Below are positions 3,001 through 47,061 of a stretch of DNA of 64,000 nt, piece by piece (the stretch's first letter is position 1; each line of letters starts with the position of its first letter). The DNA comes from an uncultured Planctomycetales bacterium (GTDB lineage Bacteria; Omnitrophota; Gorgyraeia; Zapsychrales; JAHFFX01). The position numbers and the translations under genes are program-made. The stretch is from NCBI GenBank assembly GCA_964612665.1, contig CAZTCI010000001.1, positions 508,896 to 572,895 of the forward strand, given 5' to 3'. Below the pieces are notes generated by a model, which was given only the letters and a program-made list of their open reading frames with translations, was not told the origin of the DNA and made no database searches.

Positions 3001-6000
3001 TGTGAATATAGAAATTCTGACTTGCCATTGACTGGAAAGTTTATTCCACGCTGTTGGCTTGCCATCAAATGTAATGATTGATGGCAATTCGTAAGATTGG
3101 CCCTGGACTTCTGAAATCCAATATTGTCGTATCCGGGATTTACCGAGAAATGTTTCGTCACTTCCAACAACAACGAGTTCTTCGATCAGTAATATTTCGA
3201 TAAAAACTCCCTTATCTTTCGCATAATCCATAATAATAGCGGCGGCATTCAAGAGACAATCGCCATATTTCCCGCCGAGCAGAACAACCTGAATACCGTT
3301 TTCTTGGAGAAGGAGATCTAAGAATTTATAAATACGCTGACGGTCTTCTTTAGAAGATTCATGAATTTTTTCGGGCTTGGGTTCTTCTAATTCTTGAACT
3401 ACGATCCCACGCTTTTTTAATAAAGTAACCAAAGATTTAAAAATCGGCTGCATCTCTCTTCCCAAATCACCAGAAACGCTACGATAATCCCTAACTTCGA
3501 AAATTCCAATTGTGAGAGACCTGATTCGATTTATAGCTACAAAAGATTCTTGAGATGATGTGTATTGATTTCGGCGTTTTTGTCGTTGAATAATAATAAA
3601 CTTGCCAAATTCAAAGATAACTATGCCCAAAATAATACTAACCATTCCCACAGTAAATCCCAACATCCCGGCCGTTTCTTTGGTGGCCTTTAAATAAATA
3701 ACATCCGCCGATAAATCTTTATGACCACCCACATTGATAATCATCTGCTGTTCATACGCTAAAGAAAGCGCGGCCGCTTCGTTGATTTCAAATCCGGCGG
3801 ATTTGACCTGAGCGATCAGTTGGTCTTTAAGTTCGCCGAGCGGACCAAAGGATTCTTCAATCATTTCACCATTGAAGGAGACGAGATGTTTAGTTGCCTT
3901 AATAATATGTATTTCACCTCCATGGGAAAGGACGTTATAAACCTCAGATAAAACTATGGACGGCCTCGTCGATTCAAGCACGAAACTAAGCAAGGCCACA
4001 TCAAACGTCTCTGGCGCAAACGACAAATGCTGGGCGTCTCCATTCACCCAGAGACCATCGCTTACTGTGTGTTGCACGATGCGTATCTTTGAGAAATTAT
4101 TATCTAATCCAACAACGACATTCCCCTGTCTTCTTAACTTACCGGCGATGCCGCCGGAACCAGTACCTACATCCAAAATACGATGACCGCTCCCAATTTC
4201 CTGCAGATACCAAAACGAGAGCATAAAAGAATTATTAATAGTGTGCCGCAACAAATCCTCCAACGTTATGATGATGGGCTTACGCACGGCGGCAACAGAG
4301 ATCATTACTACAAGCAGCATCCATTTTATTAATCCGACGAACCAGATCATCGAAATCAAAGAATAAATATCTACATACAGCGAATTATATTGGCCTTGTT
4401 TATAATGTTCATTCGCACGCCTGATCAATTCTTCATGGATCCGATCACCAATCGGAATCATCCCTCGCCGGTGATTATCGGCCAAATATCCGAGCGCCTC
4501 TGCCAATGTTTGCGCGGCGATGCCGAAAAATAGGCGGACATCATTTGTGCCCATTATGCGGGCCGCGGGATTGGGCGCTGGGGGTTTTTCACGCGCGATA
4601 AACTGGCGGATTTCTTCCAGGACATTGAAGACTTCGGTGAGTTGTTTGAGTGTCTTGACCGATAAATGCGGTTGCGGTTCAACAAAGACAATTGAGTTGA
4701 CCAAGGCCAGCAGATGGTTTTGAATTTGATATGCATAATTATCCAGGTCTTTTATATTGGTCTGCTCGGCAACATGCATTTCATAATCTAAATCTTGATT
4801 AGGAAGATCAAGGATTTTGATCGACAACAGCCCTTTGTGTTGCATCTGTTCCAAAGCCGTGTACAAGGCGGCCATTGATTCCATGAAACCTTCACCCGAC
4901 GGAATATAAGTTTGATTCTTTAATTTCGGACCTTCGCTTCTCTTATCTTTCTTGGGCACAGACTCTTTCTGCGTGTAAGGTAAGAAAACGGCGCCTAATT
5001 TTTGGTTGTCTTTCTTGCCATAAAGGAAAAATTCAATCGCCAGCTGCGGAAAGACCCGGACCGTTTTGGGCAAAGCATCAATAGAAAATCTTTGTATTGT
5101 GACGTCCGCTTTCTTAATCGAGACATACTTGGGGTCCTTAAAGAAAATGACCGCTTCTCCATAATCCGTTGAAATCAGGAACTCAACCTTTTCGCCGGCT
5201 GCAAGATTTTGCTCAACCGCTTTCAAATTGATCGTCAATTCAGACTGGGAATTCTGTTCAAGTACTTCTTGTTGGGAGATCGGCTGTCGTCGAGGATGAT
5301 AAGAAGCAACGTCGAATGAACTTCCTTCCAGCAGCATAAGGATAGTTACGACCAAATAGATATTTTTGAAAAGTTGGAATGAAGATTTAAAGCGCGACGC
5401 GAAAACAGCAATTAAAACTAACACCGCGATAATTACCCAAAACTCTTGTGAATGAATAAGGGAAAAATTACTTCCCTCATCAACAGCATTCAAATCTCCA
5501 TTCTTGGCTCGAACTTCCCAAGTTTTATCAGCTTGTTGGTAAGAATTCTTTTGAATCGCCTCTCTAACTCTTTGAGTCAAATCATTTTCGTCGATGCCGC
5601 CAACGTCGATCCAATTCACGAAGGCAGCAATAATATGCTCCTGAAATTCCTCCGAACTTGCCGACATCCTCACTCCGATTTCCATAAATTCTTTGGCCGC
5701 CCTTTTGAGTTCTTCAATGGCTTGACTGCGTAATGACAAATCCTCGATGCTTCTCGCCAGCGTCCATCTCAGCTGATTGTTTAAATACCGTATGAACGTC
5801 TTTAATTTCTCCATATCTCCCTCGAGTAACTTAATTTTCCATAATTGATTGGCCAGCCGGCTGATCGTTTCAAATGCCTTTTGCCAGGTCTTTTCCGACG
5901 ATGAAAGCGAAAGACGCTCTGCCATTAAAAGCAAAGTCTCATCCAAATATTTCAACTCATTCGATGGATAAAAAAATAAATAGCTATCGTAATCATCCAT

Positions 6001-9000
6001 GCGTCCCATTGCGTGGCTATGATAAAGATCTCGCTCGGGAACAAGGGCGATATTCAAAACATAATCTCTGAACGGTGCTTTTTCATAACTGCAATTTTTT
6101 TCGTATCTAAGCCAACCATCGAGATTTTCCATCGCCATTGAAAAAGATCCACGAAGTCCCGGGTTCGCCCTCCAAGCAACGATTTTCAGTAAGAGCTCTT
6201 TCAGTTTGTGATTTTCAAGTAACCGGCCCGTCGCTTGTCCTTGCCAGTTTAGTTCTTCCACATTAAACAACATCTGCGCCAAATATTGCGGAATCGAATT
6301 TAGTCGCCCTTCGGTCCCCCAAAGATCCAGGGCATTTGTTGACTGAGGATCGTTCGAGATCGCAGGATCAAATGTTTTGAAGTCCAGCGCCTCTTTGAGC
6401 ATCCATAACGTTAGATCCTCATAAGTAAAATCGGAAAATCCGCCATTACGCAAAGACAACGGCTGCTGTAATTGTTCACTCATAACAAAATAAAGTCCGA
6501 TCAATCGTCGGAGGCCTTGAATCAGCGGCGGGAAGTCAATCGGATAAGTTCTTTCTTTATCAAAGTGCATTCCAATTGTTCGCACATGCAACAAAAAGAA
6601 TATCGATGTCCAGGCGGTTAACCATTGTTCTTTCAGTTGTCCACCTGCCCAAAACCACATTCGTCGGGTTCCTATTTCAAATGGTTCGACATCCTCAAGC
6701 GAAGCCAAGCGCACAATATCCTGATTGGGATGACCATACTTTGATAACCAGCCTCTGGCTTTCCAATACCGACGCAGACAATCGCCGATCAATGAAAGCT
6801 CTTGCTCCGAAAGTGGGAGCAAATGACCATCTCCTGTCTCACTATCCATTCTTTCAGAAGTAGCATTCACAATTAGATAACCTAAGAGCTTTGTGAAACG
6901 TTGACTCTCGTGAGTGAGAGAATCAAAAATGGTTGAAGCATTAGCATTATGCAGGCTATACAAAACATATCTTCTCTGCTTTTCGTTATAATGTTCCGTA
7001 TTCAAATCTATCTTAGAATCTAACGTAAATTCCCACGCAGGTGGAAGTAACATGCCTTGCGAATTGATATACCCTAGTTGAACAAGATCATTAAATAACT
7101 GTGGCAAGTCTTTGTCAGGAACAATCCCCTTAAAACTTTTCAAGCTTACCGCATCATATTGATCGAGGAGGTTTGTCAGTGTTTCGATCCATTGCGCAAC
7201 GGGCCGCGATGTATTCTGAGCATTGGAATCAGTTAAAGTAACTTTCTGCTGTCTGACTGAGAGACGACGCCAGAAACTCTCTCCCCATGACAACTTCAGC
7301 ATCATCAAAATCCCGAAGACAATCAGCGCAAGCCATCCCCAACTTCCTTCCGCACCCGTCGTTGGCCAGAGAATCAGATGGCTGCTCAATTCATTTCCCG
7401 ACGCTGATTGAGCACTCAACATCACGATCCCCATCGCAGCGGCAATCATTCCGCCGCGCAGGCGTCCCCAAAATCCTCGTACTAAGCGAATTGCTAACGT
7501 AACAACGAGACCCGCAGTAATGACGGTCAATAATCGATTGAGAATAGATTGCAAAAGGTTTGAAAAAATAGGGTTGTGCTGCAGGAAGGAAAGAAGCGGA
7601 GTATCTTTTTTGCCGACGGGCGGGGCGTTGGGCTGCATCTTAGCATAGTGCCACACAATCAAAATACTAACGCCAATTAAAATCAATAGATATTGCACGA
7701 GTGAGTAGGTGTCCATGTTGAAAATGTTATTTGTTTTAGTCTCCCGATCAAAACCTCCATCCCGTTCGGCGAGCATCAGAAAAGCCGTCTCGGCGATGTG
7801 CATGTCGCTGATGCCGTGATGCAGATAGATTTTATGCACGCTGCGCGTCGAAAGACCGTTTCTGACGAGGCCCAGGTCCCAAACGCCCTGTCCTAACCGC
7901 AACCGATCACCGATTCCAGCGAGAAACTCCGGCGATGCATCCGCGACGGTAACAACCGGGGTGAACTTCCGTTCAGTCTTTGGAATTAATTTTTCTAATT
8001 GTTCGAATAGATTTTCTCTTCCTAACCGTCCAAGAAGAAGATTGGGGCTCGTCACCACAATCACATTGGCGTAAATGGGATAATTTTTATGAAGTTTCAA
8101 AAGCTCGTCGGACGCGGACAAGGCGGCCTGGACCATAGGACCGATGGCGACGATGTTAACCACATTGTCATCGGGATGGTAATCAGGAAGATGGCTGTAA
8201 TCGACGAGCCGGTAACCGCCTTTGAGAATTTCTGGGCCGAGACGCTTGATGGCGGCGGGTTCATTAAGGCCGGAATAAGTTTTCTGTTCCCGCAACCGCC
8301 GGAACAATCCGCTGCGTTCAACCAACAGGCTCGATGCGCGGATATACACGGCGTTACGCCCGTGGTCATGGCCGGTCAACATAAGTTCAAAGGTTTTTTT
8401 CAATATATAATCTAACTCGTCAAGAAAAGCCGGTTCCCACATAACCGTGTTGGGCATCGCCCGGCCGATGTCCGCCGAGACACTCGATTGATGTTGAGCA
8501 CCGTCGGTGGCCAGCGTTGGGCCGGACGGTGTTCCGACAGCAATAAATTGTGAACCCCAGTACTGGGCGTAAAAAAATTGATCCAGCGCCCGGCGGAATA
8601 AAAACATATCATAGATCGTAACAACCGGAATCAAACGCACGCCAAACAAATCATAAGCCTTGCCAAAAGCCGCCGCCAAGGTCACGGCGTTCATTTCTGT
8701 AATGCCAATGCGTAAATGATTTCCCGCAAATGAATCGGCGCTGACAACACCTTGAGTGGCGCCAGGAGCAATCATTCCCGTAGATGATCCAACATCCGGA
8801 GAAATCGTGACCAACCGCGGCGCTATTTTCTGCCAGAAGCGATCGTCTTCGGAAAGGTCCGCCGCCGCCGATTGACTGAGTAGACCTTTCACCCTATTAA
8901 TCGACATACCCAGATATGTCTGCGTTGGAATTCTCCCGCGGGCCGGTGAATAAAGTTTTTCCGGCCAGATTTGATTCTTTAATTCTGCTTCAAACGCCGC

Positions 9001-12000
9001 GCGGTTTGCATCGATCATTTGCTGCGCTTCGGCGGCTTCATGATCTAAACGTGAACGGACATTCTTAAGTGTCTTAAACTCGACGGAAGTTTCATTGAAA
9101 TTGGGGAATGGATTATCTTGCGGCATGCCTAATTCGTTACGGACCTGCGCCAATTCTTCGGGAGTCAATAACTGCGAATGGTTTCCTTCCTGACCAATCA
9201 TCGGTCTTAGACCCCAGCCTTTGATCGTATGCGCAATAATTACCGTCGGGCGATCGCTGGCGCGGGCTTCGCTCAAGGCTTTGATTAACTCAACCAAATC
9301 ATGGCCGCCCAAATCGGTAAAGAGCTCATAGATTTTTTCATCGCTGTATTTCTTCAAGAACCGCTTTATTGGCCTTTTCCTTTCCAAAGAGAGTTTCTTA
9401 TTCTTATCATCCAAGGGAAAAGGCCTAATATTGACTTTTGTTTCTTCCTTTGGATTCACAAAAGTCAATAAAGAAGAACGTTGTTCGATCATCCAAGCGC
9501 GGATTCCGGCGCCGTTTTGAGCGGAAAGATTTTGGTAAACTTTCTGGTCGATTGTTTCCATAACTTTCCTAAAGACACTTCCCCCTCGTCGGGCAAAAGC
9601 CGCTTGCAATTTTCGGCCCCAGCGCAGTTCAACGACTTGCCATCCAGCCGCCGCGTACATTCCGCGCAGTTGATCCAATTTCCAGTTTTCGGTATTTCCG
9701 TCGAGTGATTGGCGGTTGTAATCGACAATATGCGTCACGCGGTCCAAGTTAAATTCTTTCACTAACGTCAGAATCTCCCGCAGGTTTCCTTCTTCAGATT
9801 CAGCATCACCCAAGACCGCGAAGAAATGCGAATCAGAAACCGCATGGCCATGCGCCTTGAGCCATTTCCAAACAACGTTAAGTGCTAAGGCAACCGCCGG
9901 CCCTATGCCAACCGAGCCCGTCGGAATTTTGACGCCGTCCGGGTCCGCCATTCCCGGATACGCGTGCAGGCCTGGTTTGTCTAATTCATCCGTGTTGACT
10001 TCCGGATGCTTGGCGATGAAGGCGGCTTTTAATTCTTCAAGTTCTTTTAAGACTTCTGGCGCAAGACGGCCCCTGATATCTTCAGCCCTGAAATCAACCG
10101 GCAGCCGGACAGCGTTATCACGCAAACGATAAAGTGTATCGACGGGTAATCGACCTAAAAGATATTGAATGGCATGATACACCGGCGCGGCGTGCGGTTT
10201 GTGGGCGACAAAATCATGACCGCGCATGACAGCCAGCTCGAGGGCGATCATAATGTGCAATGCAGACGCGGATGCAGCCTGGTGCCCGCCGGTTTTAGGC
10301 AGTTCATATTTAATTTTATTGGCTTCATCAATTTCACCGATTGAAATCCCAAGCGCCCGACGGGCGATGCTTTCTAAAGCTTCGATGTCCTTCGGTGCAA
10401 ATCCTTCCGGAATTTTATCATTTCTATTTCGGGGAGGCCGGTGTCCGGATGAGCTCATTGCAACAATCATCATCGTGGACAAGAACAACGCAGCCACATG
10501 TCCACCTACGAAGTAGGACACAGCCAATAGTCCATCCAGTGCCAGCGCGATGAGGACAAGCGCAGTTGCAAATACGGTGGAGAGGTTTTGATCTGAGCAT
10601 TCTTTTATTCCATTTTTTGTTTTTTTGGTTTCCTGAGCTGAAAACTTTTTCCACCAGGCAAACGTTTCACTCAAACCCGTCCCAATATTCTTTTGTCGTC
10701 TCAACTTGTTGACAATCAAAATGATTAATGTTATGTTGGCGTCGAAAAGATCATTGATCAATAATTGCGTGGCCCTCTTTGAAAGATGGGAGAATCGTAA
10801 GTGAAGATCTGGGAATTTGAATGGGACAACTGGAATATTGAGCATATTGCTAAACATTCCGTAAAATCTCAAGAGGTAGAAGAAGCTTGTTATCGCCGCC
10901 ACGTCGCTAAGAAAACTAAAGATGACATTTATCTTGTCTATGGTCAAACGTATTCTGGCCGTTATCTTTTCATCGTTATTAAATATAAATCTAAAGGAAT
11001 TGTTTACCCTATAACCGCTCGAGACATGACTGATTCTGAGCAGAGATTCTTCCTTAAACGGAGGTAACATATGATTAAGAAGTCTTCTGTAATCCCAAAA
11101 TTTAAGAATGTCGCCGATGCGGCTGAATTCTTCGATCAACATGATACGACCCAGTTTCTCGACGAATTGCAACCAGCGCATCTTAAGTTCCCTAAGCCCA
11201 AGCATCTTTTGATCACCTTGAAACCTAAACAAATAACGAGGCTCAGACGCTTGGCCGACAAAATGGGTAAACCTTCCGATCAAATTGTTGAGCAATGGAT
11301 CACCCAAAAACTTGCCGAAGGGTAATGATCTGCCCAATGTGGCACGGCTCAATTTCTTTACAATCTCTTTAAAAACGCCTTTCGCTTTATCTGAGGATTT
11401 GGTTCGAATCGTCAGTATCAACAGCAACACATCAACGGCCAACACAAGGAACATCAAATGTAATCCCGGTCCCGGAACAAAATATCCTTTAAACACAACC
11501 ACCGGACGTTCCTCATCAGGCAGAAAACCTAATTCCTCGCGGATCTCCTCGGGAGATATTCTTAAAATATGTATGGGCTGAGGATGATCTTCAAAATATT
11601 TTAAGAACAGGCTTGTAATCGTTTGTCCGTTATCAGAAGCAATATGAAGACGGCCCAGAATAAAAAACGTGTCTTTAGCAGCTTTTCGGCCGCGCGATAA
11701 GATATTGATCATATTGGGGAACATGAATGGTTCCCTTAGGTCAATAGCGAATCTAAAGTTCTCCGAGACATTGATCCCTTTCAAAATTTCTTGAACAGCG
11801 GGCTCGGCCTGGCCGACGACATGATTTTCGCGTTTGGCTCTGGCCATGAGGGCTTTTATAAAAACAACAGTCAAATCACGCCAAGTTGTCAAGTCTTTAA
11901 GCATGTCCGCTGAGTTATCCGGGGGCAATGTTACGATCGCGGAAAAAACGAGACTGTTCCGGGTGTTGTAATAAAGAGAAATGCGTCTGTATAACGTTGT

Positions 12001-15000
12001 AACAGGGTGCATATAGCCGGGAGGTAACCATTGGGCCAAATCCTGCCACGTGGGAAGGATGAACAAATTCAACGCAGAATGAATAAATCCTCTTTTTAGC
12101 GATTGCAGTTTATCTAAAGAAACCTTCGAAGGGTCGGACAGCCATTGTTCATATTGCAGATAGTCATCTAATCGGGTGGCCAATTCATAACTCAAAATCT
12201 CCTCGACGCCAAACAAATGTCCTTTGGTACTACGGTTAAAATGGGTCGACACATACCACAGTTCGTCTTCTTTAAACCGGGCCACTCCTTCGACACCCGC
12301 AAAGATTTTCTTGCGTGCGGCCAGGAGATGGATCTCTTCTCTAAATAATTCATGCTCGGGATTGGTATGGTTTTCCCCGATTAAAAACAATCGCGGTGCG
12401 GATTCGGGTTTCAGGCGGACAGCGAGGAAAATTAATGTGCTCAATAAAAACGTCAGGTTTAAACTATTATCGAAACCATGGACGGCAATAAAGAAGCTCT
12501 TGAAATTTTCAGTCTTTTCCAATTTTCTTGACGACAATTCTTTATTGATCTTGTTGCGTTCTGATGACACATAGGCCAGGACAGCATCCAAAAATTTTCG
12601 ATGGATTGAATCTGTGGGTTTTACAATACGGCCATATTCCGCATATAACGATACAGCTTTATCAAAGGAAACTTCCCAACGGAAGCTGACAGTCTTTTGC
12701 CAAACAATGATTTGGCCCCGCCCGACAGATGACAAGAAGGCATTGGCTTTCTCGTCCGACGGGTTTTTCCGCGCCTGCAGCAAAACACACTCTCCATTAA
12801 ATGGAGGATAAAGAACCATCCGGTAAATAAAACCCAAATCACCCCCAAATTTTTGTTTCCTAAATAAATTTTCCAGTGCCTTGAAATGATGTTGTCGGTT
12901 GGAAATATCTCCCCCTCCTTTAGGAAGATATCCGGCAGCAGCATTAATCTTTGACCAAATTGCTTGAACGGCTTTTTGTTTGACATTAAATCTTTCCGCT
13001 ATCTGTTGATCACTTAGACCTTCAACGAAACCATATAAAATATTCAATTGTTTTTCCGTAAATACTGGTTTTGCCACATCGAATTTTGGAAACGGAGGCC
13101 TCCGGTCGACAAGTCCTAACTTTCTCGCTTTTTTGATAAGTTCCCTTCGCTCCGACGTCACAGCCAACACTTTATAAAGTCTCGAAATCTTTGAGCGTAT
13201 ATTGATTGCCGGTGAACTCAGCGCCTGGCCGATCTCAATCGTAGTATTTCCTTTATTAAGCAATCTTAAGATATGAAGTTCAAGCTCACTTAGGATGAAC
13301 GCATGTTTTTTTGCGAAAAGTTGTTTAGGTTTAACCAGCCGCTCAGACGATCCGAAAATCGCCACGCGGTATTCTTCATGCTGATTGAAAAATTTCCAAA
13401 GAAGATAAGGGTAATCATTATTAAAGTCGCGGGGTCCGCTTTTAATTTCCAGATTTAAAAGTTGATGAATTTGGCTCCTTGACTTGCGGATGGTTTCGGA
13501 CCCTGTCTCAAGCTGAGCGGCAATGTCCTTGTCATTTAATCCAGCATAAAGGCCTTTTAGAATGGCTATGTGTCGCGAAGAGAGTTCTTCGACGGACGCA
13601 CAAGATTGAACGCTGCGCGCTATGGCCGCGAGGACAGCGACAAAGATAAAACTGAAATTGGATAAATAATCCGATGGATTTGTAAGGATAAAAAAGTTAT
13701 GCTCTCGCTGCAACCCTGGCAAAAGACTTTGATTATCTCTTTTACGAAAGACTTCAAAGGGTTGAACAAACATAAACTGCGCGCCCGCTGTTCCCCTGCT
13801 AGTTTTAAAAACTTCACTTTGCCTAATCTGATTATTCAACGCATCGAGCGCTTCTTTAAGCGGTTGCGAGGTAATCAAATCTTTCCAGCCTCTTAAGAAG
13901 CCTATCTGTTCGAGCGCGCCAAAGATCCATGGTTCTTCATCAAACACAATAATGGTATCACTAGACCTTAAATCCCTTAATGTATTAAGCAGCCTAACCA
14001 CGACTGGTTGATCGATCCAAAAAGTTCCTTTTAGAATAACAGTCACACTTTCTTGTCCAGCTCGACGTAGAAATTCGACAATATCATCCAGCGCGTTGTC
14101 GATGTGTAACGTTTCCTTAGGGTAAATTCTATTTAGCAAAATTTTTTCTGGCTCCATAAACTGATTCACGAATGATTGCAGCTCCTTATAAGCTCTTTGC
14201 CGGTCTTCATGGTCATAGAGCCGGTCAATTCCGAGGACCAATTGGGCCGGCAGCTCCGCCACAAAAATGTCAACGCCTATTGCGGGATAAATCCGATACG
14301 GTTTTAAGAGACCAACCGCCGCTAAGACTTCTAACTCTCGCCGCCAGGCCTCGGCCAATGGCCCATAATCAACGCTTCCCCGCGATGCCAACCGTCTGCC
14401 TTGTTCTTCAACTATCATGGAAATCGCTTGAATCTGCTGGAGAATTTCTTCTTCGGAAATTATTTTGCCTCCGGTCCGTCTTGTGCTCTTTCGTAACGCT
14501 CGAACCAAAAATATAACCAGCGCGCTAATTGAAATTAGAGCAGCTGCGGCATAAATAAAACCAGTATCAACTAACATCGACGATGATTCTGGATATTTCG
14601 CGTCATAAGTTTTCGCTAATTGATACAACGTCCGCTCTACACGGTCTTTAAGACGGAGGAATTGCCTTTCTGATAGGGTCAATGTCACCATTATCTCTGG
14701 CCAGGAGCATGTCAGAATATGATTATTATTGTTTTTCTCAGCGAAATCACTTTGGCTTGTATCACTGACCGCATCCATAAGGACTTCCAGTTCTAATAGC
14801 GCTTTGACAATTATCTGACTTGTTTCTTCACCTCGACGATAAACATCGGTCATATCTTGTTTGGTTGGCTCCAACCTTTCATCCGTTGAAGGTTCCGGAA
14901 CATTTTCAAGTTCCGTCTCAAAATCAAAAACTTGCTGCTCCAGTTCTCTTCCCTTCTTAACAGCCCAATCCAAGACCGACGCTTTATAAAACAAAAGTAC

Positions 15001-18000
15001 AAATTTCGGCCCGCGCAAATTATGCTTTAAAATATTTAAAATCCTTTCGGCTTCTTCTTGCATCTGGACATAAGAAATCTGGTCTTCATAAATCTGACCC
15101 ATGAGTATCTCAATCAGCTTTCGTTGATCTACATTTATTCTTTCCTCTCTCCAAATTCTCTCGAGGATTGAAGATGTTCCCGACAACTGGACAACCGGCA
15201 TCAGAGTCTCATAAAATTGAAACACCCTCTTTATCATTTCTGATATTTTTTCTGTTCTTTGTCCTTCATGCTGAGGCTTGAACCAAATATCGACTTCCGA
15301 CGTCACAATAAAATTCTTCATCTCTTCGTAATTGGTATTGATCTTTTCTCGAAAACTCTCAATCTTTTCTAATATAACGTTAAAGACTTTGTCCCACCCG
15401 ATTTCAGCTTCGGTTTTGTTTTCATCGGCCGATTTTGTGTCTCCCTCTCGATCCCCTGCTATGCCTTCCGAATGATTTTCAGTGACGATTACCACTATCA
15501 CTGCTCCCACCCACAACATAAAAGAAATGACCGAGAGATCTAAGAAGGAATGCTCATTGTTCCGGTTTCTGTTTCTGAAATTTCTCCTCCGGCCTGATGA
15601 ATTAAATCTTTCTGTCAACCGCCGTAGATCCTCTAAGTTTGCACTCATGCTCAAACCGTAGTCATTAAAAATATCTCTCAGCGTTTCGGTGACTTTGGAA
15701 ATTCCAGAAAAATCGACCTCTTGGCTCAATGAAAGCATTTCCAAGTTATATTGCCGCAGCCAGCCCTGAAATTCCGCGGGGGTGATTCCACGGGATTCCA
15801 AAGCCTCCCAAAGCCGGAGTAATACAATTCCCATTTCTTCGATTGTTTCCGATTGCTGCCGTTCTATTAAATATTCTCCGCTTGTCGCGGGTTCTGGCAA
15901 TCTTGCCGGTTTTTTTCTTGTTTTTTCCGGCCGGGGAATTCTATGGCGAGGAAAGGCATTGTAAACAGCGCGCTGTATATTTACGAGTTCAGTCACTCCG
16001 CTGCTGATGGCATTTTCAGCCGCATGCAATGCCTTTGTGAATTTACTCCGGCTGGAATTGAAAGACTCGAGGAGCCATGGAATAACTTGTTGGTTCAAAA
16101 TTTCTTCACCACGGCGTCTGGCTTCTTCGCTTAAATTAACCTGATGGGATAAAGAAATTCTCTTATTCATCCAGCGGTCTGCGACGACTAATCCTAAGAA
16201 TTTATATTCAGGATACTCATAAAGATAAACACTGTAACGCGGCTCGTCTTCATTCAATTCGACTAACCGGTATGACCTGCCTTCGCCCCGAAAATCTTCA
16301 TAAATTCCTTCACCCAAATCTCTCAAAGAAAACCAGACAAACTCTCCATCTCTAATCTTGAAGATATCCTCCAGCCATCTTCTTTCTTTTGTTATCTGAA
16401 CGAAATACTTTCCGGCCTGCAATTCTTTGGGGGTGGAATTTTGGGGATTAGGTTTCCGGCGTGTGACTAATGTAAACCACAGCCATTCACTCTGATCGCC
16501 GCGTGCCGTAACGATTTTGGCTTTCAGGGAAACATAACCTCGAGTTCCCCATGAATACCAAAGATCAGCGAATCCGCCTAAATACGCGTCTCCGACGTAA
16601 ATTTTATCTAAACGGTAAAGACCTGTAGATACTCTTGGGTCAACAGCTTCAATCCCTTGGCCTTTCTTAATAATCATGTCGAAACCCTTGCGGTGAAAAT
16701 CAGCGATGTCTTTTCTCACATGACTACTCCGCGCTTTAAGCAGCTTTTGTTGCTTTCCTTGAATGCCCCAATAGTGAAGAATCGGGGAACGTTGTAATTT
16801 TCCGCCGATATTTTCTTCAAACCATACCGCAACATACTCGGAATAAACTGAAGACCAGCGCAGCCCTAAGTTTCCATAACGCTTTCGGACTGTAAACGTC
16901 GAATATCTTTTTCCAAAGAGCGGAATCTTTCCGTCGGCGGTAGTTTTAACATTCTCAATCTTAAGCAATTCATATCCTTGGGCAGACCATCGCTGCGCCA
17001 GTTCAAGACTAATGACACTGTATTGGCCCAAATTTTTTTCACGTTGTCCTTCGCGTTTCGATCCTTTAACGACCAGAATTAAACGCTGTTGACGATCGAC
17101 CTCATGCAGCACCATTTCCTGCTTCACTCTTCTCCATAATTTTGTCCACAACCGTATCCAATCTCGACGGCGCGGATAAATCCGTCCAATTTCAATATCA
17201 TTAATAACTCTGGCACTAATGTCTGCCAAAAGGCCGGCGTCTTTTTGGGACATTCCTAATGACTCCCGCACGGCTTTTAATCTCTTCCCTGGTTCTTGAT
17301 AGAAGTGATCCAACAATATCTTCCAGTCTCGCACCCCCCATCTTACCCGTGCCCCTTTTTCTAATCCCTTAATTTTGAAAGGAGTGGTATTGGATAAGTC
17401 AGCGATTTTTTGCGGCGAGAGTTCTAATATATTCCTGAATAACTTTAACTCTCGTCGGGCTTCTTCATACATTGTATTCAACAATAATGCCAAATCATCG
17501 GCTTTCCATCTGGCATTCTTTGACTTTAAATCATTAATTCTATTTCTACTGATATGCGCAAGAGCCGCGAGTTCTTCTGGCGACATTCGCAAAGCTTCCC
17601 GCAATATCTTTAATTGCCGACCGGCCTCTTTATGCAGTTTATTCAATATAATATTCCAACGGTCAACACTCTCCCTAACATGACCATTCTCTAAAGCACT
17701 AATGCGTCTGGCCCTAACCTTGCTCAAAGCACCAACATCTTTTGCCGTCATTCTCAAAGACTTTCTTAATACCTTTAATTGCCGATGGGCCTCTTCATGC
17801 AGGTCCTCGAAGTTCCATAATTCCGATCGGGACATGTTGAGTAATTCTCTGGATCTCTCTAACAGTTCAATCGATTTTTTATCATCTTGCCCCTGTCTTT
17901 GGGAAGAAGCCGCCATGCCAAGAATCACTAAGGATAAAACGGAGTATACCATCCATAAATTGCTTATAATTTGAACAACCGTTAAGATAATAATCGTCGT

Positions 18001-21000
18001 CGGTAAAATGATCAAGATTTGGGCAGATGAGGTTTTGTCGCGATAAGTCTTTTCAAATTTTCTAAGTGATTTCTCGGTTTTAGAAAGGACGTCATTATAT
18101 GAAACAACCATGAAGACCGCTGCTGATACAAACATCAACAACGGCAAAACAAAATGCCCAGTTCCCCGGACACTTTCCCATCCGGTAAAGATCGGCACCA
18201 GAAAGGAATTTTCCACCTCAACATCGGAAGTTGAGGTCATTTTGCTCTGATTTTGCAGGATCCGAGCTATCCGGGAAAGATAGAGAACATAAATAACGCT
18301 TGCGAAACCAATAAGCAACGTGAACAATTCTCCATTGAAAGCAATCATTCCGAAACCAAACAACTTTGTACGATCTTCCATGAATGTTTTAAGGAAATCT
18401 CTCATCTTTTCTTGAATTTGAGATCGAAAGATATCCTGAACCCGGCGAGGCATAATATTCATACGGGTGCCCGCTTGTTTCCATGCTTCAAATTTTTCTT
18501 TGGTGAATTCTGCCATGAGCCATTGATCTTCTTCGATGGTCTTCAACATGCCACCTTTTTGGGGGTCAAACATTTCACCCAAAACTCTTGAAAAGTCATT
18601 CACATCAAAAGCGACCATGCGACCCAGCTTTCCATCATGAGAAAATGTCAGACCGTAATTTTCTCGCCAATTATGAAAATCGCGATCAACCAGTCCATAT
18701 GTCCAAATCCGACGCGTCAAATTCGAGAATTCGTTTTGAATGTGCCGAAGCTCCATTTGCAAAGCACTCACCTCATCCCACTGTTTATGTTTCTCAGAAA
18801 TCTTTATACGACGGGCAATGGCATCCAGCACTTCTCCAACGGGATGCACGCGTTCTTGAACAATCACATAAGGGAAACTGGTAAGTTTCTCATCCACGAC
18901 AATCGTCAAGTTATTTAAAATAGTCAACGTCATGGCAAAAAGATGGCCCAAATGTTCTTTAACCAATAGGTATCCAGGCAACACTTCTCTCTCGAAGTCC
19001 ACGTCGGCCTTCGGGACCTTGATAATAAGATTTGGAAACGCATAGGAGTAATATGCTTTCATCAGCCCGCCTTGGTCCAAATAATGAAAGGTATGACCTC
19101 GTAGAATACCTTCAACGGTGGTGATTCGAATGTGGTCAAGGTGTTCCTGTAAAACAGTATCCTCTATTCCCATTCTACGCCCCCATTGCATCAACCTTTC
19201 AGGCCAGCCCTCCATATAATTGTCCAATAGCGCTTCCAGAAGAGCATCTTTTAAATTGTTCCTGATCCGACGTGATATAGGTTGGAGGTGGCGTTGAATT
19301 AGTTTTTGATATAACCATCTGAGTATTAATATTAGAGTAACAGCAGTAACTGCGATCAACACCCCTACACGCCACCCATGCATCAGCTCGCTAGAAATAA
19401 GCTGGGCGTTGGATTTTTCCGTTGTTACATCAACCTGCGGGGCCGAAACAGATGAAAACATTTCATCCACCAGCCGTTTGGCTTCCTTGGCCGCATCCAT
19501 GCTTGAACTCATTTTTCCCGAAAAAATGGAAATCTCTCGCGGACTTAAATGCTGAACCGTCGTCGGCCGCGCCGCATTCTGAACCGAACTCACCAGAAAA
19601 TCTTTGAGGGTAAAGATCGAACCAATATGGATCGGATTGAAATCGTGGAAGAATCGATGAGCTTCTTCTTTGATTTGGTCAAATGCCGTCACCGTTGGAT
19701 TCCAGATGATATCGCGTCCCAGTAAATCTTTATACTCATCGGGAATTTCTGGAAATTTGCCAACGTTGAGATGATGAATCGAGTGCTTCACATGAGCGAT
19801 AAAGTGCGCATTATTGCCTAAAGGATTGATCCCGACAAACGGCCCGTCCATAATCAAAATACTTTTGCCCCGGAATGCCGGAGGAAGAAGGACGACAGGC
19901 AACTCAAAAACTTCGAATTGATAGTTTTGCTGATTGGCCGGTTCCGCAATGAACCGATTAATATCGCTGTAAACGGCGTAGACAACGGCATCATAGTTCT
20001 TTAATTTTTCCGGAGTTGCCTCCTGAATGAGCACCTGCACATTGAATTCCTTAAGTTTATCAACGGAGATCTCCGCCAGCTTGCGGATGTTCATAAAGTC
20101 TTCCCCAACAAGCAGCGATAATCCCACAGAATTTTGTTTTAACACCTCCGGATACTTTGTCTCGTAAGGCAAATTAAAACGATTTAATAAAGTCAAATAC
20201 TGCTCGGGCGTAACCGCGCTTCCTTCCGCGGCGATTGCATAGTATTGTTCCAAACTCAAAACCGCTTCACCGAAGACACTCAAAAAGCTTTCACGAGAAT
20301 TAATGACTTCTTGGACAGTTTCTGGACTGCGCGGGTGATGATAGCCGCGATGCAAGCGGCGATCCCAATTGCCGGACACGCCGCCGAAGAGTTTGTTGCG
20401 TTCATACAAAGTCACATCGTATCGAGAATCTTGAGCAATAAACCATGCGGCCGTGATCCCGAAGATTCCGCCTCCGATGACAGCGACTTTGCGTTTCGAT
20501 GGAGCAACAAACGCAGAACGGGACGCCGAAGGAGGTATCCCGGCATCGGCACTCAAATCGAAATCAAAGTATGGCTCCTCAAGCATGTCATCCAAATCGA
20601 TTCCCTCGAAGACCTCTCCCGAATTATCATTAGATTGAACAACTTTAGGATTCACGGGTTCTTCATCTTTCCAATTCCATCCGCCCGCTGCGATCTTTTC
20701 ATCAAACAACCGATGCGGATAACGCATAATGACCGCGTTGACGCCGGCGAATCCGCCCATGCCGTCGTGAACATCGTAACGGCCGCGGATGATGTATTCG
20801 CGATTCCAACGCACCGCTCCGTTTTTCTCGTGATAGCCTTGCGCCGCGTCGGGACTGTAGGTCAGCAATTCTTCCAGAGCATCGCGCCAGGCTTGCAAAG
20901 CTTGAATGTAAATGACCGCAGTGCCGATCCCGCCGACTTGCTTGCCTCGCACGCGATAATGATCGACCCGCGGATGTTTGGCCACAGCCAAGACCGATGG

Positions 21001-24000
21001 AATCGGCGCTCCGACGGAAAAATTAAATCTGACATTGCCATCGTTGTCCTGGATTCCTTCTCCAGCGAGCGTAAAGCGATTCGTCAGCGTCTGAACGTGT
21101 TCCAAAAATGTGCCTCGAAATTCCTGCGCGTCACCATGCTGAATCAAGTCGATCATCTCCGGCGTTAGTTTTTTCTGAATGCTCCAGATCACCGCGCCGA
21201 TGTAACGTCGAGTCACTGCCGAGCGAATCATTTTCCCATCGGCATCCAACGGGTGTTCGAAGACCTCCGCGACCACATGTCCCGTTGGGTGATTCAGAAT
21301 CATGGAACGAATTTGACGCGGACGGATCTGTTCGTAGGGCTGATTGACCCACGCGTCGTTATGAACCTGATAAAGTTCAAGGACATTCTCCAACGTCGGC
21401 CAGCGATACACAATCGTAATCCCCTGCTCCGGACGCTCCTCGCGCACGAACAGCGCCAGGTCGTCCAGCGGAATCTGCTCTATATTAGGAAAGAAGCGCT
21501 GCAGGGCATGATTCAATGTCGTGGGGATGTCTTGCCTTTGGAGCGCCAGCGGCGACGGAGCGGTGGACTCAAAATTCTTGATGCGGAATTGATAATATTC
21601 ATCTAAGGTGCTAAACCACGTTGAGAGCGGATGGCGATTGTTCTGGCGCCGAGCCGCTTCAAGAAGGCGGGAAGTTGAGCCAGAGAAGAACATCGTCGTC
21701 AAATGGCCGTTCAGATGGAGAGCTCTGGTATGAAGGATGGATACAACAAGGACTAAAATAATAGCCAAATTCAAAATCATCATCCATCCCCTGTCGTCAA
21801 AACCGTGGATGGCGAGGAAGTAGGTATGGGTGTTAGAATCGGCCGGACGAGTTACATAAGAACTCTGTCTAAGGACGGTCGCAATCAAAGCGAAGGCAAC
21901 GACAATGTATATATTAGAGAAGATACCTCGAACCTTTTTCTGATCTCCTCCGAACGCCTGCTCCATCGTTTTAGTCTCGAGACGGCCGGGATTGAATGGC
22001 GTCCGATCTTCCATCACTTTCCTTAGAATTCTCAACCGCCCGCCCAAGGCCAGTTCGCGGGATTGTCTGGCCGTAATGACATCCACATCCTGATCCGTAA
22101 ATCCGCGGGTTTGGAAATTGGAAATAGGATGCGCGTTAAAATTCTTGAGACGGGAATATTGTGCGTCGGTCAACCGGGCCTTGGCTTCATCCACATAACG
22201 GCCGGACGCAATCATTTGATCGGCTAATCCTTGAGGAGCAAAGACCCCGAATCGGGTCGGATGCTCCCAAACAACAATGATCACTCCCATTGGAAGACTC
22301 GCTAAAAATTCTTCTGTCCATCGCCGCGTCGATTCCAAGGGCGAAATGGTTCGATCGAGTTTGCGCGTTAGCCAAATATAAATATATTCATAAGCAAATT
22401 TTAAAAACACAACGTCCGCCGGCTTTATGTCTCGAACAAACGCTCTCATTTCATCTCTCGACATCAAATCACTCATATGATGATGAAGAGGCGCCAACTT
22501 TTCCAATCGCAGAATCGGATGACCGACGATCCCGACCAATTTTTCTTTCAGTCTTTTAAAACCCATCGTGATATCCCACTCACTCAGCCGATTGTCCACA
22601 GTTGTCATGGACGAAACATAATAACCGGCAAATAAATCAATCCCGGAAAGGATGTTGTGGAGTTGCGTATTGTTACGATTGAAGATCCCGATGGCGGAAA
22701 GGAGTTGTAATTGCAGGAAATAAATTCTGACTTTGATCGGAATCACGCTGTGTACGGTGAGCTGATCCTCACCGAGCCGAATCTGCTCTTCAATTTTACT
22801 GAGGATTTTTCGAACCGATTTTAGTGAATGGAGGAATTTAAATTTGAAAATGGAAACGACCATGAGTAACACGATGGCCAAATTCAAAATCATCATCCAT
22901 ACCCCGTCGTCAAAACCGTGAGTGCCGAGAAAATAGGCTTTGGTGTTGGAATTAGGAACCATGCACGGCATGTTCCACCCGATCATCATGTATCGGTTAA
23001 AAACAGCGATATCATGGTTCCCATCAGGTTTGACACCTCCAGTCATGTGTGTTATTCTTCCTTCACCGGAGGGGGACAACCAATGCATAAACGAAAGGAT
23101 AAAAACATGAACGCCATCAACATGACGGACATCGTCCGCAAGTCGATGCAAGAACTTGTTGTCCCTGAGTTGAAAATCTTGCAGGGTGATGTTCAGAGTC
23201 TCTAGAATGACAATCTTGAGATCAAGGCTGATCTTCGGATCCTCAATAACCGTGTCGACAATCTGGAAAAATCTTTGAACAGCCGGATGGATTCTCTCAA
23301 CAGCCGGATGGACTCCCTCGAGAAAAGGCTGGATAACTTGGATAAAAGGGTTGACGGCCTTGAAAGGCAAATTCATAGCATGCGCGAGGATTTTAAGCTC
23401 GCGCTCGATATTCATGAGCGGCTCACTGCGCTTGAAGTCAAAATTTCTCATCATAATTAGGCAGTGGTTTTGTTGACGAATCATCGCCGGGCCGATTTCC
23501 TCAAAGTTATATAAAGGAAATCGGCCCGTTGTTTTTTGGTTGCTGTATACGATTTTATAGAACGCCGTCACTGTCGAATCCCAGATCATATCGCGCCTAA
23601 GTAAGTCTTTATATCCCATCCCACCGGATTGACCATACCAAATGAAATAAACCAATGCCCATAAAACCAAGGCCACATCAATTCCAACCATGTATGATAA
23701 ATATGCCGATTGAACGCTGTTTTTATTTTGATCTGGCTCAAACGCAAACAAGCGCACGGACAGACGCGAATTCATATTCCTTAAAAGTTCATTTTGCTCA
23801 TTTATGATTTTTTCCAAATTCAACCGTCTCGCGATGGCCGCCGCGCCCACCAGTGCGACAATAACTTGGATCTCCCGTTGACCGGGCAGCCAGTTTTCCT
23901 GAAAATGCAGACGATTCATCTTCTTGATCAATTCTTTCTTCAAATTTAATTTTATTGATCGAATTTTGCCGGCCCGGGACGACAGAGGCACGTCAAAACT

Positions 24001-47013: not shown

Positions 47014-47061
47014 TAGCTCATGGAAAAATTCCTTTGTGTCTTGAACGATGACCTTCCAACT

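Follow-up and report, generated by a model that had tools for sequence, protein, structure and literature searches.

Among transmembrane regulators, BcrR carries an XRE-type helix-turn-helix (HTH) domain. RodZ possesses one N-terminal XRE-type HTH, which binds MreB, together with one transmembrane (TM) helix and a periplasmic domain; its HTH was reportedly described by van den Ent et al. in 2010. [quoted passage not shown]

Multi-TM, SecA-like giant proteins have been described only lately, and the roles at present proposed for them are prey adhesion, cell-wall digestion and metabolic clusters. We compared the locus studied here with the Omnitrophota giants of West-Roberts et al. 2023 (bioRxiv 10.1101/2023.11.21.568195) and Nielsen & Lui 2026 (bioRxiv 10.64898/2026.06.07.730766). 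According to both studies, these giants are overwhelmingly sequence-unique and fast-evolving.

A giant membrane protein of the Omnitrophota type

The window, the whole 64-kb stretch of DNA that was analysed, is spanned by a fragment of a giant gene encoding a polytopic membrane protein (1..63999, minus strand, as are all features below). This reading frame contains no stop in 21,333 codons, as compared to 849–1,344 stops in each of the other five frames. Neither end of the frame lies within the window, and the protein is therefore longer than 21,333 residues. It contains 73 hydrophobic, membrane-type regions (Kyte-Doolittle mean of at least 1.6 over 19 residues), 15 of which fit two helices by length. 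A first-pass annotation of this DNA had described a membrane giant protein, and the uninterrupted frame and hydrophobic regions bear this out. Crude hydropathy, together with the positive-inside rule, underlies the topology; TM predictions for Omnitrophota giants differ from program to program (West-Roberts et al. 2023, bioRxiv 10.1101/2023.11.21.568195).

An artefact, in which the locus is an assembly chimera or the frame is not one translated chain and the HTHs come from small genes of their own, is extremely improbable. The start and end of the gene lie outside the window, and no copy of the locus occurred in the public collections searched, as might be expected of an artefact. However, neither chance nor gene joining can produce 64 kb free of stops where each other frame has about 850–1,340, and proteins built in this way are known from complete genomes (bioRxiv 10.1101/2023.11.21.568195; bioRxiv 10.64898/2026.06.07.730766).

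The chain is laid out as beads on a string: a few tens of residues at most separate each TM hairpin or single helix from the soluble domain that comes after it, and these domains are of kinds that normally work in the cytoplasm. One such bead is a divergent SecA-like DEAD ATPase (aa 6766–7224; 42328..43704) that scored 24.9 bits against SecA_DEAD (cut-off 24.6) and 22 bits against P-loop_SecA. In alignment, the GKT of its Walker A motif and its DEAD residues are invariant. Pfam gave no match to SecA_SW or SecA_PP_bind, indicating that the domain lacks the scaffold and wing domains. A histidine-kinase core (39247..40407) comprises an H-box-like FLHEIGNDL followed by HATPase_c (80 bits), in which the N, G1 and G2 boxes are recognizable. 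A response-regulator receiver domain (aa 21041–21141; 577..879; Response_reg, 40 bits) starts 7 residues past a TM segment and has the acidic residues of DDD and LLLTD. Further beads include SAM methyltransferase, transketolase-like and FAD-binding domains. The Pfam tiles revealed no peptidase domain in the 21,333 residues, and glycosyl-transferase, glycosyl-hydrolase, NUDIX and dockerin domains were absent from the fragment.

An ORF of more than 10,000–30,000 codons, numerous TM helices and a divergent SecA DEAD-like domain match this protein to the giants of the Omnitrophota ('Archaeovorin'-type, 'multi-enzyme cluster' class). Those giants also have ORFs of tens of thousands of codons, a divergent SecA_DEAD without the remaining SecA domains, and domains that are far from their families and without close sequence relatives. 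The methyltransferase (PF08241), HATPase_c (PF02518) and receiver (PF00072) domains of the window are recurrent in them. TM density is about one region per 290 residues in the window and about one per 370 in the published giants. By contrast, HTH, LuxR, XRE and sigma domains, all present in the window, are absent from the text of West-Roberts 2023 and Nielsen & Lui 2026, and the accessible part of their supplementary text contains no HTH accessions. As far as these sources extend, HTH domains in such giants are previously undescribed.

No orthologue of the giant emerged from the collections of genomes, metagenomes and proteins that were searched, and the window contains no marker genes. The 1,651 residues spanning the fourfold XRE and threefold LuxR arrays had no match in genome contigs, metagenome contigs or 5.8 billion proteins. 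The SecA-like region returned one ordinary SecA. An exhaustive HMMER search with aa 6100–7299 yielded family-level matches only, namely soluble multi-XRE proteins, ordinary SecA and two long SecA-like proteins. A SecA-like profile matched 30 genome loci, the best 22 of 30 all being in ordinary frames of 620–860 residues rather than in giants. The same profile matched two metagenome loci, one of which, L031 (JGI contig Ga0082335_1000071), was informative.

The membrane protein encoded by L031 has 6,657 residues and combines methyltransferase and SecA-like modules with a sigma-70 module at its C-terminus. A candidate second example, P0036, proved to be the same gene. Like the window, L031 specifies many TM segments, a SecA-like domain (23–25% identical to that of the window) and very little cysteine (0.39%), and has a similar GC content (43.5% versus ~44%). 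Unlike the window, the L031 protein carries Sigma70_r2 (45–48 bits) together with a weak region 4, is much shorter and lacks XRE and GerE domains. In ending with a sigma-70 module, this single independent example indicates that transcription-type domains recur in such SecA-like membrane proteins. Used as a query, its SecA region returned ordinary SecA only and not L031's own protein; giants seem to be beyond the reach of the protein database searched in this way.

HTH arrays of three families

The chain was scanned with Pfam in tiles of 1000 residues and then unit by unit against the curated gathering cut-offs. Some 14 HTH units, belonging to three families, were found at seven places: four tandem XRE units, three GerE/LuxR units, two sigma-region-4-like units, two XRE units in a 1-kb repeat and three single XRE-like units. 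Together, they account for ~4% of the chain. Eight units exceeded the cut-offs (two GerE/LuxR, five XRE and one sigma-70 region 4). A further six or so fell slightly below them, some being backed by profile–profile comparison or internal homology. The first-pass annotation had placed HTH multiplets at six sites, subject to their significance against GerE and HTH_3 profiles. The tiles contained GerE, HTH_3/HTH_31/HTH_19 or Sigma70_r4_2 at each of these sites, and the HTH families were significant in the unit-by-unit scans.

One array comprises four tandem XRE-type HTHs (aa 15400–15630), as identified by Pfam HTH_31/HTH_3, hhalign and internal BLAST. It begins 36 residues past a TM hairpin, has a period of ~56 residues and extends over 17110..17802, rather than 17180–17840 as first annotated. 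Units 2 and 4 scored 28.2 and 31.2 bits against HTH_31 (cut-off 27), while units 1 (HTH_3, 20.3 bits) and 3 (HTH_31, 15.4 bits) remained under the cut-off. According to hhalign, the four-unit profile matched the canonical XRE profile with 97.5% probability (E=6e-12), and the weak units 1 and 3 did so on their own with 94% (E=1e-7). Internal BLAST of units 1+2 against units 3+4 gave E=9e-15.

Three XRE-like units occur singly. That at aa 11675–11740 (28780..28977) scored 34.7 bits against HTH_3. The unit at aa 1376–1440 (59680..59874), which begins 28 residues past a TM hairpin, scored 28.3 bits against HTH_3 in its tile, and 23.6 (HTH_31) and 20.3 bits (HTH_3) as a short piece. A weak XRE-like HTH at aa 12588–12655 (26035..26238) scored 24.4 bits against HTH_3 in its tile and 19.4 as a short piece; it had not been listed in the first-pass annotation. 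Overall, five units belong to the XRE families (PF01381, PF13560, PF12844) at 28–37 bits, namely units 2 and 4 of the fourfold array, the 28780–28977 unit and the two units of the 1-kb repeat, XRE-A and XRE-B. Units 1 and 3 of the fourfold array and the units at 26035 and 59680 are under the cut-off. HTH scores in the window are about half those of ordinary XRE domains (20–37 bits versus ~53 bits per unit in the soluble protein P0002).

The LuxR/GerE array spans 12910–13593, slightly more than the 12930–13560 first annotated, and its three units align with the C-terminal output HTH of NarL/FixJ-type regulators. Unit 1 (aa 16803–16858; 13426..13593) and unit 2 (aa 16901–16960; 13120..13299) belong to Pfam GerE (PF00196), with 27.8 and 24.0 bits, respectively, against a cut-off of 23.5. 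Unit 3 (aa 16977–17030; 12910..13071) scored 22.2 bits (E=1e-4), only slightly under that cut-off. In NCBIfam, unit 1 aligns with the output domain of FimZ/MctR/FixJ/NarL-type response regulators; unit 2 matches the C-terminal HTH of MadR/UvrY/MalT, and unit 3 residues 151–186 of NarP. Single-sequence AlphaFold2 models of the threefold LuxR and fourfold XRE arrays were too poor for use (pLDDT 48.9 and 40.1, respectively). The sole part of the former to reach pLDDT 74–86 was LuxR unit 3, in which a three-helix pattern is visible. Assignment as a NarL/FixJ-type response regulator was rejected: a hydrophobic segment, not a receiver domain, precedes the LuxR units, and the sole receiver lies ~4,000 residues downstream of the GerE HTHs.

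A sigma-70 region 4 type HTH (aa 10628–10685; 31945..32118) scored 34.3 bits against Sigma70_r4_2 (cut-off 25.7) and stops 10 residues ahead of the next TM segment. Its neighbour (aa 10522–10580; 32260..32436) is a weak sigma-region-4/GerE-like HTH (GerE, 15 bits, E=0.02; Sigma70_r4_2, 13 bits). NCBIfam aligned this unit with the C-terminal end of sigma-factor and NarL models at E of about 1e-3 to 2e-3, far under the family cut-offs. The Pfam tiles gave no match to Sigma70_r2 anywhere in the 64-kb window, and the absence of region 2 beside region 4 rules out a sigma-70 family factor.

HMMs built from the window's own HTH units revealed no additional copies in the chain, and phmmer found no significant match among PDB sequences. 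Two extra HTHs hinted at by NCBIfam beside single units (aa 11616–11663 and 1461–1492) were without Pfam support and were rejected. Genuine LuxR/GerE-, XRE- and sigma-region-4-type multiplets lie amid TM segments in one continuous chain, as the original structural reading held.

Duplication and divergence of the arrays

The tandem order and internal homology of the units suggest that the arrays arose via duplication in place. Most of them appear to be old duplications, with 17–39% amino acid identity among units, and one appears to be recent. The recently duplicated unit is ~330 residues long, with one XRE per copy. Repeat unit A (44935..45669) has a core of ~245 residues containing XRE-A (45085–45270; HTH_3, 37.4 bits) and is followed by acidic sub-repeats; repeat unit B (43945..44679) contains XRE-B (44080–44268; HTH_3, 36.8 bits). 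Two repeat units of roughly 1 kb, each with an XRE and acidic sub-repeats, had been recognized at the outset; we found a direct-repeat spacing of 990–1002 nt and identities of 87% (85–90%) in nucleotides and ~75% in amino acids.

Between units A and B, dN/dS was 0.63 overall and 0.86 in the HTH, with dS of about 0.2. The dN/dS values indicate weak constraint, and dS indicates that the pair is not under homogenization. Nor did the old arrays, at 17–39% identity, show the concerted evolution for which a check had been proposed. The turn and helix 3 differ between XRE-A and XRE-B at 7 of 13 residues, as compared to 49 of 224 elsewhere (Fisher P=0.015), an excess that is not unique, as the same count occurs in four 13-residue windows. 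Across all units, the residues of the recognition helix differ (first residues RAR/SRN/TPF/SAR/SRW/SQS/DQT/SGN) and the hydrophobic HTH scaffold is conserved. The first-pass annotation had proposed differences at DNA-contact positions as a sign of distinct targets.

The weak constraint on the recent duplicate raises the prospect that the HTHs are relics of gene accretion, derived from fused or duplicated ordinary genes and now serving as spacer kept open for downstream translation. Small XRE/LuxR regulators are among the commonest genes, the ~4% of the chain taken up by HTHs is estimated to be close to the proportion of regulators in a proteome, the HTH scores are low, and the giants are described as sequence-unique and fast-evolving. 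However, retention of the HTH hydrophobic core at 17–39% identity requires purifying selection on the fold, and the apparent tandem duplication in place suggests a selected gain in copy number. The intact catalytic motifs of the neighbouring kinase, receiver and SecA-like domains also argue against a chain of dead relics. On balance, we consider relics unlikely.

Membrane placement and possible function

Six of the seven HTH arrays begin 20–60 residues past a TM region (background fraction 0.21; binomial P 5e-4), a placement common to all domains of the chain and hence not specific to HTHs. The TM flanks that precede the arrays mostly contain 4–7 Lys+Arg per 20 residues, that of the LuxR array containing only 2. 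Such Lys+Arg-rich flanks fit the positive-inside expectation for cytoplasmic loops and support a cytoplasmic location of the arrays. Moreover, XRE-A and XRE-B share a TM-free stretch (aa 6050–7218) with the SecA-like ATPase; with its GKT and DEAD motifs, this domain needs cytoplasmic ATP, which would place the two XREs in the cytoplasm. From these features of the sequence, the HTH arrays probably face the cytoplasm.

XRE-type HTHs on the cytoplasmic side of a TM helix are also found in RodZ, and the HTHs of the giant might be protein-binding or structural modules of that kind, docking partners or parts of their own chain at the membrane. The tile containing the fourfold XRE array reached 27 bits against HTH_25, which we take to be a Pfam HTH family that includes RodZ-type HTHs. 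The units are very near the membrane, score low against DNA-binding families and, in several cases, have a net charge of 0 to −1, being neutral or acidic. Taken per unit, however, HTH_25 gave 17.6–17.8 bits, below both its cut-off of 24.6 and the same unit's HTH_3/HTH_31 score; these values, and the tandem arrangement C-terminal to TM hairpins, led us to reject identity with RodZ. Some units are strongly basic, with several at +7 to +8 in a chain whose mean is −0.1 (sd 3.9). A common nucleic-acid function also accounts more readily for the joint occurrence of XRE, GerE and sigma region 4. A protein-binding role therefore strikes us as doubtful.

The first-pass annotation had offered two functional readings, the first of which was that regulators sequestered at the membrane are released by processing. 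In this scheme, a polyprotein or regulated proteolysis would free XRE, LuxR and sigma-like factors to act on the chromosome, so that transcription would respond to the assembly or activity of the giant. That membrane-held regulators can be controlled through regulated proteolysis is established (PMC7593790), and TM hairpins between beads would permit excision. C39/S8 peptidases are reported near the N-termini of Omnitrophota giants, a region that the window excludes, and these giants have been suggested to be cut into smaller polypeptides (bioRxiv 10.1101/2023.11.21.568195). By contrast, the 21,333 residues contain no peptidase domain, no repeated cleavage-site motif was seen beside the arrays, and fragments were not resolved in published proteomics (bioRxiv 10.1101/2023.11.21.568195). 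Furthermore, sigma region 4 without region 2 could not work as a sigma factor. Release is, in our judgement, quite unlikely.

The second reading, a DNA-anchoring scaffold, fits the probable cytoplasmic location of the arrays, their multiplicity and the positive charge of some units, and it comes near to the reading that we favour. By analogy with known regulators, we tentatively propose that the arrays are cytoplasmic, remain attached to the membrane and bind DNA, the tandem copies replacing dimerization; this is a real possibility, if somewhat short of probable. Free XRE and LuxR regulators require dimerization to bind repeated half-sites. In a rare, membrane-locked giant, encounter with a partner would be unreliable, and covalent tandem copies would supply two to four HTHs in cis. 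The arrays, still tethered, would bind DNA from the membrane in the manner of ToxR, CadC, ChiS/TfoS and BcrR. Inputs may come from the kinase and receiver modules of the same chain, and the effect would be to control transcription locally or to anchor chromosomal loci at a giant-protein platform. The prevalence of multiplets (arrays of 4, 3, 2 and 2) favours DNA binding in cis, and soluble proteins with 3–8 tandem XREs indicate that an in-cis solution exists; the three single units are a misfit with this idea.

A 17-bp palindrome, YCAAC-N7-GTTGR, occurs in seven copies inside the gene, mostly closely upstream of TM-coding segments. That these palindromes, the sole candidate sites, are targets of the HTH arrays is pure conjecture. 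A more far-reaching version of the in-cis proposal, and one we hold to be improbable, is that the giant is a membrane platform that organizes or regulates DNA, its arrays holding chromosomal sites, perhaps including the palindromes of its own gene. If so, the platform would represent a new class of DNA–membrane tether. Binding would make the giant a self-tethering transertion device that links transcription of its own gene to translation and membrane insertion, or signals of its own kinase and receiver would be passed directly to DNA.

The ~14 HTH units, kinase core and receiver point to a cytoplasmic, DNA-directed role for at least part of the chain, outside the present proposals for such giants. 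The fourfold XRE and threefold LuxR arrays are small, expressible pieces whose DNA binding is testable without the whole giant. If the anchored arrays do bind DNA, the notion of the transmembrane regulator would come to include covalent multi-HTH arrays, and the arrays would offer a handle on the expression and insertion of giant genes.

The protein combines DNA-binding-type domains and TM segments in one polypeptide, as do the transmembrane regulators ToxR/TcpP, CadC, ChiS/TfoS, VtrA and BcrR, whose DNA-binding domain is covalently joined to TM segments. These regulators comprise a few hundred to ~1,100 residues, have one, usually N-terminal, DNA-binding domain and act as oligomers; by contrast, the chain in the window exceeds 21,000 residues, and its HTHs, of three families, form seven arrays that each follow a TM hairpin on the C-terminal side. 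In database searches, the XRE units of the window were matched best by soluble proteins with 3–8 tandem HTH_3 domains, and the similarity is at the family level (34–41% over about 50 residues). The soluble multi-XRE proteins P0002, P0005, P0006 and P0021 (5, 6, 8 and 7 HTH_3 units, respectively) share the tandem XRE arrangement of the window, and some have acidic linkers, as do repeat units A and B. They differ from it in their length, 271–703 residues in the set scanned, and in their canonical scores of ~53 bits per unit.

An open frame with recurrent transmembrane segments

Stop codons were counted directly: one minus-strand frame had none in its 21,333 codons and the other five frames had 849-1,344 each. 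From end to end, the window thus represents an internal piece of a single giant gene. Across the 64 kb, a conventional ORF listing, which omits frames open at both ends, gave six ORFs of 150 aa or more. In the numbering used here, residue i of the chain, counted from 0, corresponds to window positions 63997-3i to 63999-3i. The GC content of the window is 41-51%, and the plus-strand GC skew is negative throughout. The chain is rich in Leu and Ile and contains only 0.2% Cys.

According to a Kyte-Doolittle scan, the chain contains 73 hydrophobic regions, of which 15 span 39-73 residues and probably hold two or more helices each. Between these regions, Pfam matched TPR repeats, a divergent SecA_DEAD domain with a P-loop (42328-43704, Walker A GKT and DEAD intact), HATPase_c (80 bits), DAO/NAD_binding_8, UbiA (weak), the transketolase N-terminal and pyrimidine-binding domains, a SAM methyltransferase and a receiver. 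The transketolase-like (TPP-binding, pyrimidine-binding), FAD/NAD-binding (DAO) and weak UbiA-like segments lie on the minus strand within 8371-9960, 20300-20490 and 17878-18360. A histidine-kinase core (39247-40407, minus strand) comprises an H-box-like FLHEIGNDL directly after a transmembrane (TM) segment, a ∼270-aa insert and HATPase_c with N, G1 and G2 boxes; the receiver (577-879, minus strand) has an acidic pocket, DDD and LLLTD. With the NarL-type helix-turn-helix (HTH) domains described below, all parts of a two-component pathway occur in one polypeptide, thousands of residues apart.

For six of the seven HTH arrays, at most 60 residues separate the start from the preceding TM region (background fraction 0.21, P=5e-4, with the threshold picked after seeing the data). 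The methyltransferase and the receiver are placed in the same way, at 28 and 7 aa, respectively, so this placement is a property of the whole chain and not specific to HTHs. Judged from its sequence, the chain reads as a string of TM-hairpin-plus-domain modules. In most TM regions preceding arrays the HTH-side flank is rich in Lys and Arg, and both flanks are rich in hairpin-length regions. In addition, the HTHs of two ∼1-kb repeat units, XRE-A (unit at 44935-45669) and XRE-B (43945-44679), share one TM-free stretch with the ATP-dependent SecA-like domain. From these flanks and this shared stretch, we infer that the HTH arrays are cytoplasmic.

HTH units of three families

Pfam was run on 1000-aa tiles and then on every putative unit alone, with the Pfam curated cut-off as the passing score. 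The tiles matched HTH families at all six places where the first-pass annotation had named HTH domains, and eight units exceeded the cut-offs. In the LuxR array (12910-13593), GerE units 1 and 2 scored 27.8 and 24.0 bits (cut-off 23.5) and unit 3, at 22.2 bits, fell below. In the fourfold XRE array (17110-17802), units 2 and 4 passed as HTH_31 (28.2 and 31.2 bits, cut-off 27), and units 1 and 3 fell below (20.3 and 15.4 bits). One unit of the sigma-r4 pair (32260-32436 and 31945-32118) passed as Sigma70_r4_2 (34.3 bits) and the first fell below, at 15 bits. The single XRE at 28780-28977 (HTH_3, 34.7 bits) and both XREs in the ∼1-kb repeats (37.4 and 36.8 bits) also passed. The XRE at 59680-59874, with 20-24 bits alone and 28.3 bits in its tile, is listed below the cut-off, as is an additional weak XRE at 26035-26238.

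Profile comparisons extended these assignments. A profile of the four XRE units matched one of 47 canonical XRE units (97.5% probability, E=6e-12); the match persisted with only units 1 and 3 (94%, E=1e-7), and the array's two halves, units 1+2 and 3+4, were homologous to each other (E=9e-15). Against NCBIfam, all three LuxR units aligned with the output domains at the C-terminus of NarL/FixJ-type regulators. Both sigma-like units aligned with region 4 at the C-terminal end of sigma-factor models, the first of them weakly and below the family cut-offs. NCBIfam also hinted at two extra HTH partners, for which Pfam gave no support. A search of the chain with HMMs derived from its own units yielded no additional HTH copies, and a PDB sequence search gave nothing significant. 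Single-sequence AlphaFold2 models of the LuxR and fourfold XRE arrays were unusable (pLDDT 48.9 and 40.1, respectively).

The chain thus carries real HTHs of three DNA-binding families, mostly as multiplets, in a TM-rich context with intact signalling and ATPase modules. The Pfam units, the 73 hydrophobic regions and the uninterrupted frame bear out the earlier description of HTH arrays within a TM-rich giant, and we consider an artefact very improbable. Free XRE and LuxR regulators reach two to four HTHs by dimerising. We tentatively favour, at somewhat less than even confidence, a reading in which the arrays face the cytoplasm and would bind DNA from a membrane tether, the tandem copies supplying two to four HTHs in cis and replacing dimerisation. 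By analogy with RodZ, the HTHs might instead bind proteins, which we regard as unlikely. Liberation of the HTH regulators by proteolysis appears more doubtful still: the window encodes no protease, although the N-terminus lies beyond it.

Duplicated units and a recurrent palindrome

The first-pass annotation had described two repeat units of roughly 1 kb with acidic sub-repeats. These were recovered, with a spacing of 990-1002 nt and 85-90% nucleotide and about 75% amino acid identity. It had also raised concerted evolution, which the other arrays do not display: their units are only 30-39% (fourfold XRE) and 17-26% (LuxR) identical and are therefore old duplicates that are not undergoing homogenisation. 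The 1-kb pair (dS 0.20; dN/dS 0.63 overall and 0.86 in the HTH) is a more recent duplication.

DNA-contact positions, which that annotation had proposed to compare, differ between units. The start of helix 3 is distinct in every XRE unit (RAR, SRN, TPF, SAR, SRW, SQS, DQT and SGN) on a common hydrophobic scaffold, and the LuxR recognition helices are likewise dissimilar (TIRKSRSQI, NIRSKISRL and AVQAIWSKI). In the 1-kb pair, 7 of 13 residues of the turn and helix 3 have changed, compared with 49 of 224 elsewhere (P=0.015), by 10 nonsynonymous changes to 1 synonymous; this excess is only suggestive because three other 13-residue windows equal that count. The low HTH scores and the weak constraint in the recent duplicate are what would be expected if the HTHs were relics of gene accretion, but the HTH fold pattern has been kept through deep divergence and the motifs of neighbouring domains are intact, and we give this explanation a low probability.

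Growth of the chain seems to have proceeded by duplication of TM-hairpin modules. Paralogous TM modules occur at aa 8296-8362 and 8698-8764 (window 38914-39114 and 37708-37908; 78% identity), aa 13683-13724 and 14054-14095 (22828-22953 and 21715-21840; 64%) and aa 11164-11196 and 11572-11604 (29412-29510 and 28188-28286; 42%), and a TM motif, W(I/L)xIxxKG, recurs. Two pairs of long, old internal repeats carry no Pfam annotation: aa 20-299 and 1861-2132 (63103-63942 and 57604-58419; 27% identity) and aa 3536-3733 and 5746-5938 (52801-53394 and 46186-46764; 32%).

The ORF is also enriched in short inverted repeats (arms ≥9 nt, spacers ≤6 nt), with 10 compared with 2.6±2.2 in codon shuffles. The 17-bp palindrome YCAAC-N7-GTTGR occurs seven times (18218-18234, 30512-30528, 30540-30556, 31305-31321, 33518-33534, 34115-34131 and 35184-35200; 0.22±0.48 expected), with some arms reaching 9-11 nt; it has no copy in metagenome locus L031 and almost none in the other loci compared. 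Three copies are the identical 17-mer TCAACCCCGCAGGTTGA (coding strand), encoding QPRRLN. The other four lie in another reading frame, encoding PT[SP][GD]VGK or STSDVEV, and among them a paired C..G to T..A change preserves the palindrome. The 12-mer CCCGCAGGTTGA has five coding-strand copies, one of them in a third coding context; outside the seven palindromes it is present at 19430-19441 and 37683-37694. Four of 18 RRL tripeptides use CGC-AGG-TTG (0.09 expected). The two reading frames, the reused codons and the palindrome-preserving change together point to a likely constraint at the nucleotide level. Each palindrome is located either inside the loop of a TM hairpin or 0-23 codons upstream of a TM segment, six of them gather at 30.5-35.2 kb around the sigma-r4 pair, and as RNA they form local hairpins (z-scores -0.8 to -3.9). 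Their role might be that of operator-like sites, of mRNA hairpins or of module junctions; a link to the HTH arrays is conjecture.

Relatives and published giant proteins

The locus and close relatives were absent from species-representative genomes, JGI metagenome contigs and a word-indexed protein collection. An exhaustive HMMER search with aa 6100-7299 returned 106 weak matches, among which the best for the XRE part were soluble proteins that carry 3-8 canonical HTH_3 domains in tandem, joined in some of them by acidic linkers; covalent XRE arrays therefore occur outside giants. Five of these (P0002, P0005, P0006, P0016 and P0021; 365-703 aa, 5-8 tandem HTH_3) resemble the giant's arrays in architecture. 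The linkers are strongly acidic in P0008 and P0021. We know of no study of such soluble tandem-HTH_3 proteins.

The SecA-like part retrieved ordinary SecA together with two long proteins, P0003 and P0036; the genome loci matched by its profile, judged from the 22 best of 30, were ordinary proteins of roughly 620-860 aa. Cys is scarce in both long relatives (0.1% in P0003 and 0.39% in P0036), compared with mostly about 0.5-1.6% in ordinary SecA-like genome matches. P0036 and L031 (2-13888, JGI contig Ga0082335_1000071) are the same gene. Its 6,657-aa product has many TM segments and carries, besides methyltransferases and a SecA-like domain, a sigma-70 module at the C-terminus, in which region 2 scores 45-48 bits and region 4 is weak, with a region-4.2-like GMTREGVRLLERKGIMRIL motif. 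The Cys content of P0036 and the GC content of L031 (43.5%) are close to the window's values. P0036 is in effect a fusion in which a membrane-anchored sigma factor follows a SecA-like ATPase, and it provides a single independent example of a long membrane protein that combines a SecA-like domain with a transcription-type one.

Neither giant-protein paper (West-Roberts et al. 2023; Nielsen & Lui 2026) mentions helix-turn-helix, HTH, DNA-binding or LuxR in its text; sigma is absent from the former and transcription from the latter, and the part of their supplement text available contains no HTH accessions. What is new here is that HTH arrays from several families sit in a protein of a kind that was recognised only recently and is poorly understood. 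Regulators that act on transcription while membrane-anchored are established (PMC11856585; ChiS preprint).

The window's protein corresponds feature by feature to the published description of such giants. Omnitrophota genes reach 85,804 codons; all full-length giants have numerous TM regions, most have divergent SecA DEAD domains without scaffold and wing domains, and their domains are highly diverged, with N-terminal C39/S8 peptidases and unreliable TM predictions (West-Roberts et al. 2023). A catalogue of 916 long proteins has a co-occurrence module around methyltransferase PF08241 and HATPase PF02518, with receiver PF00072 recurrent (Nielsen & Lui 2026). The transketolase-like, DAO and weak UbiA-like segments fit the published 'multi-enzyme cluster' class of giants.
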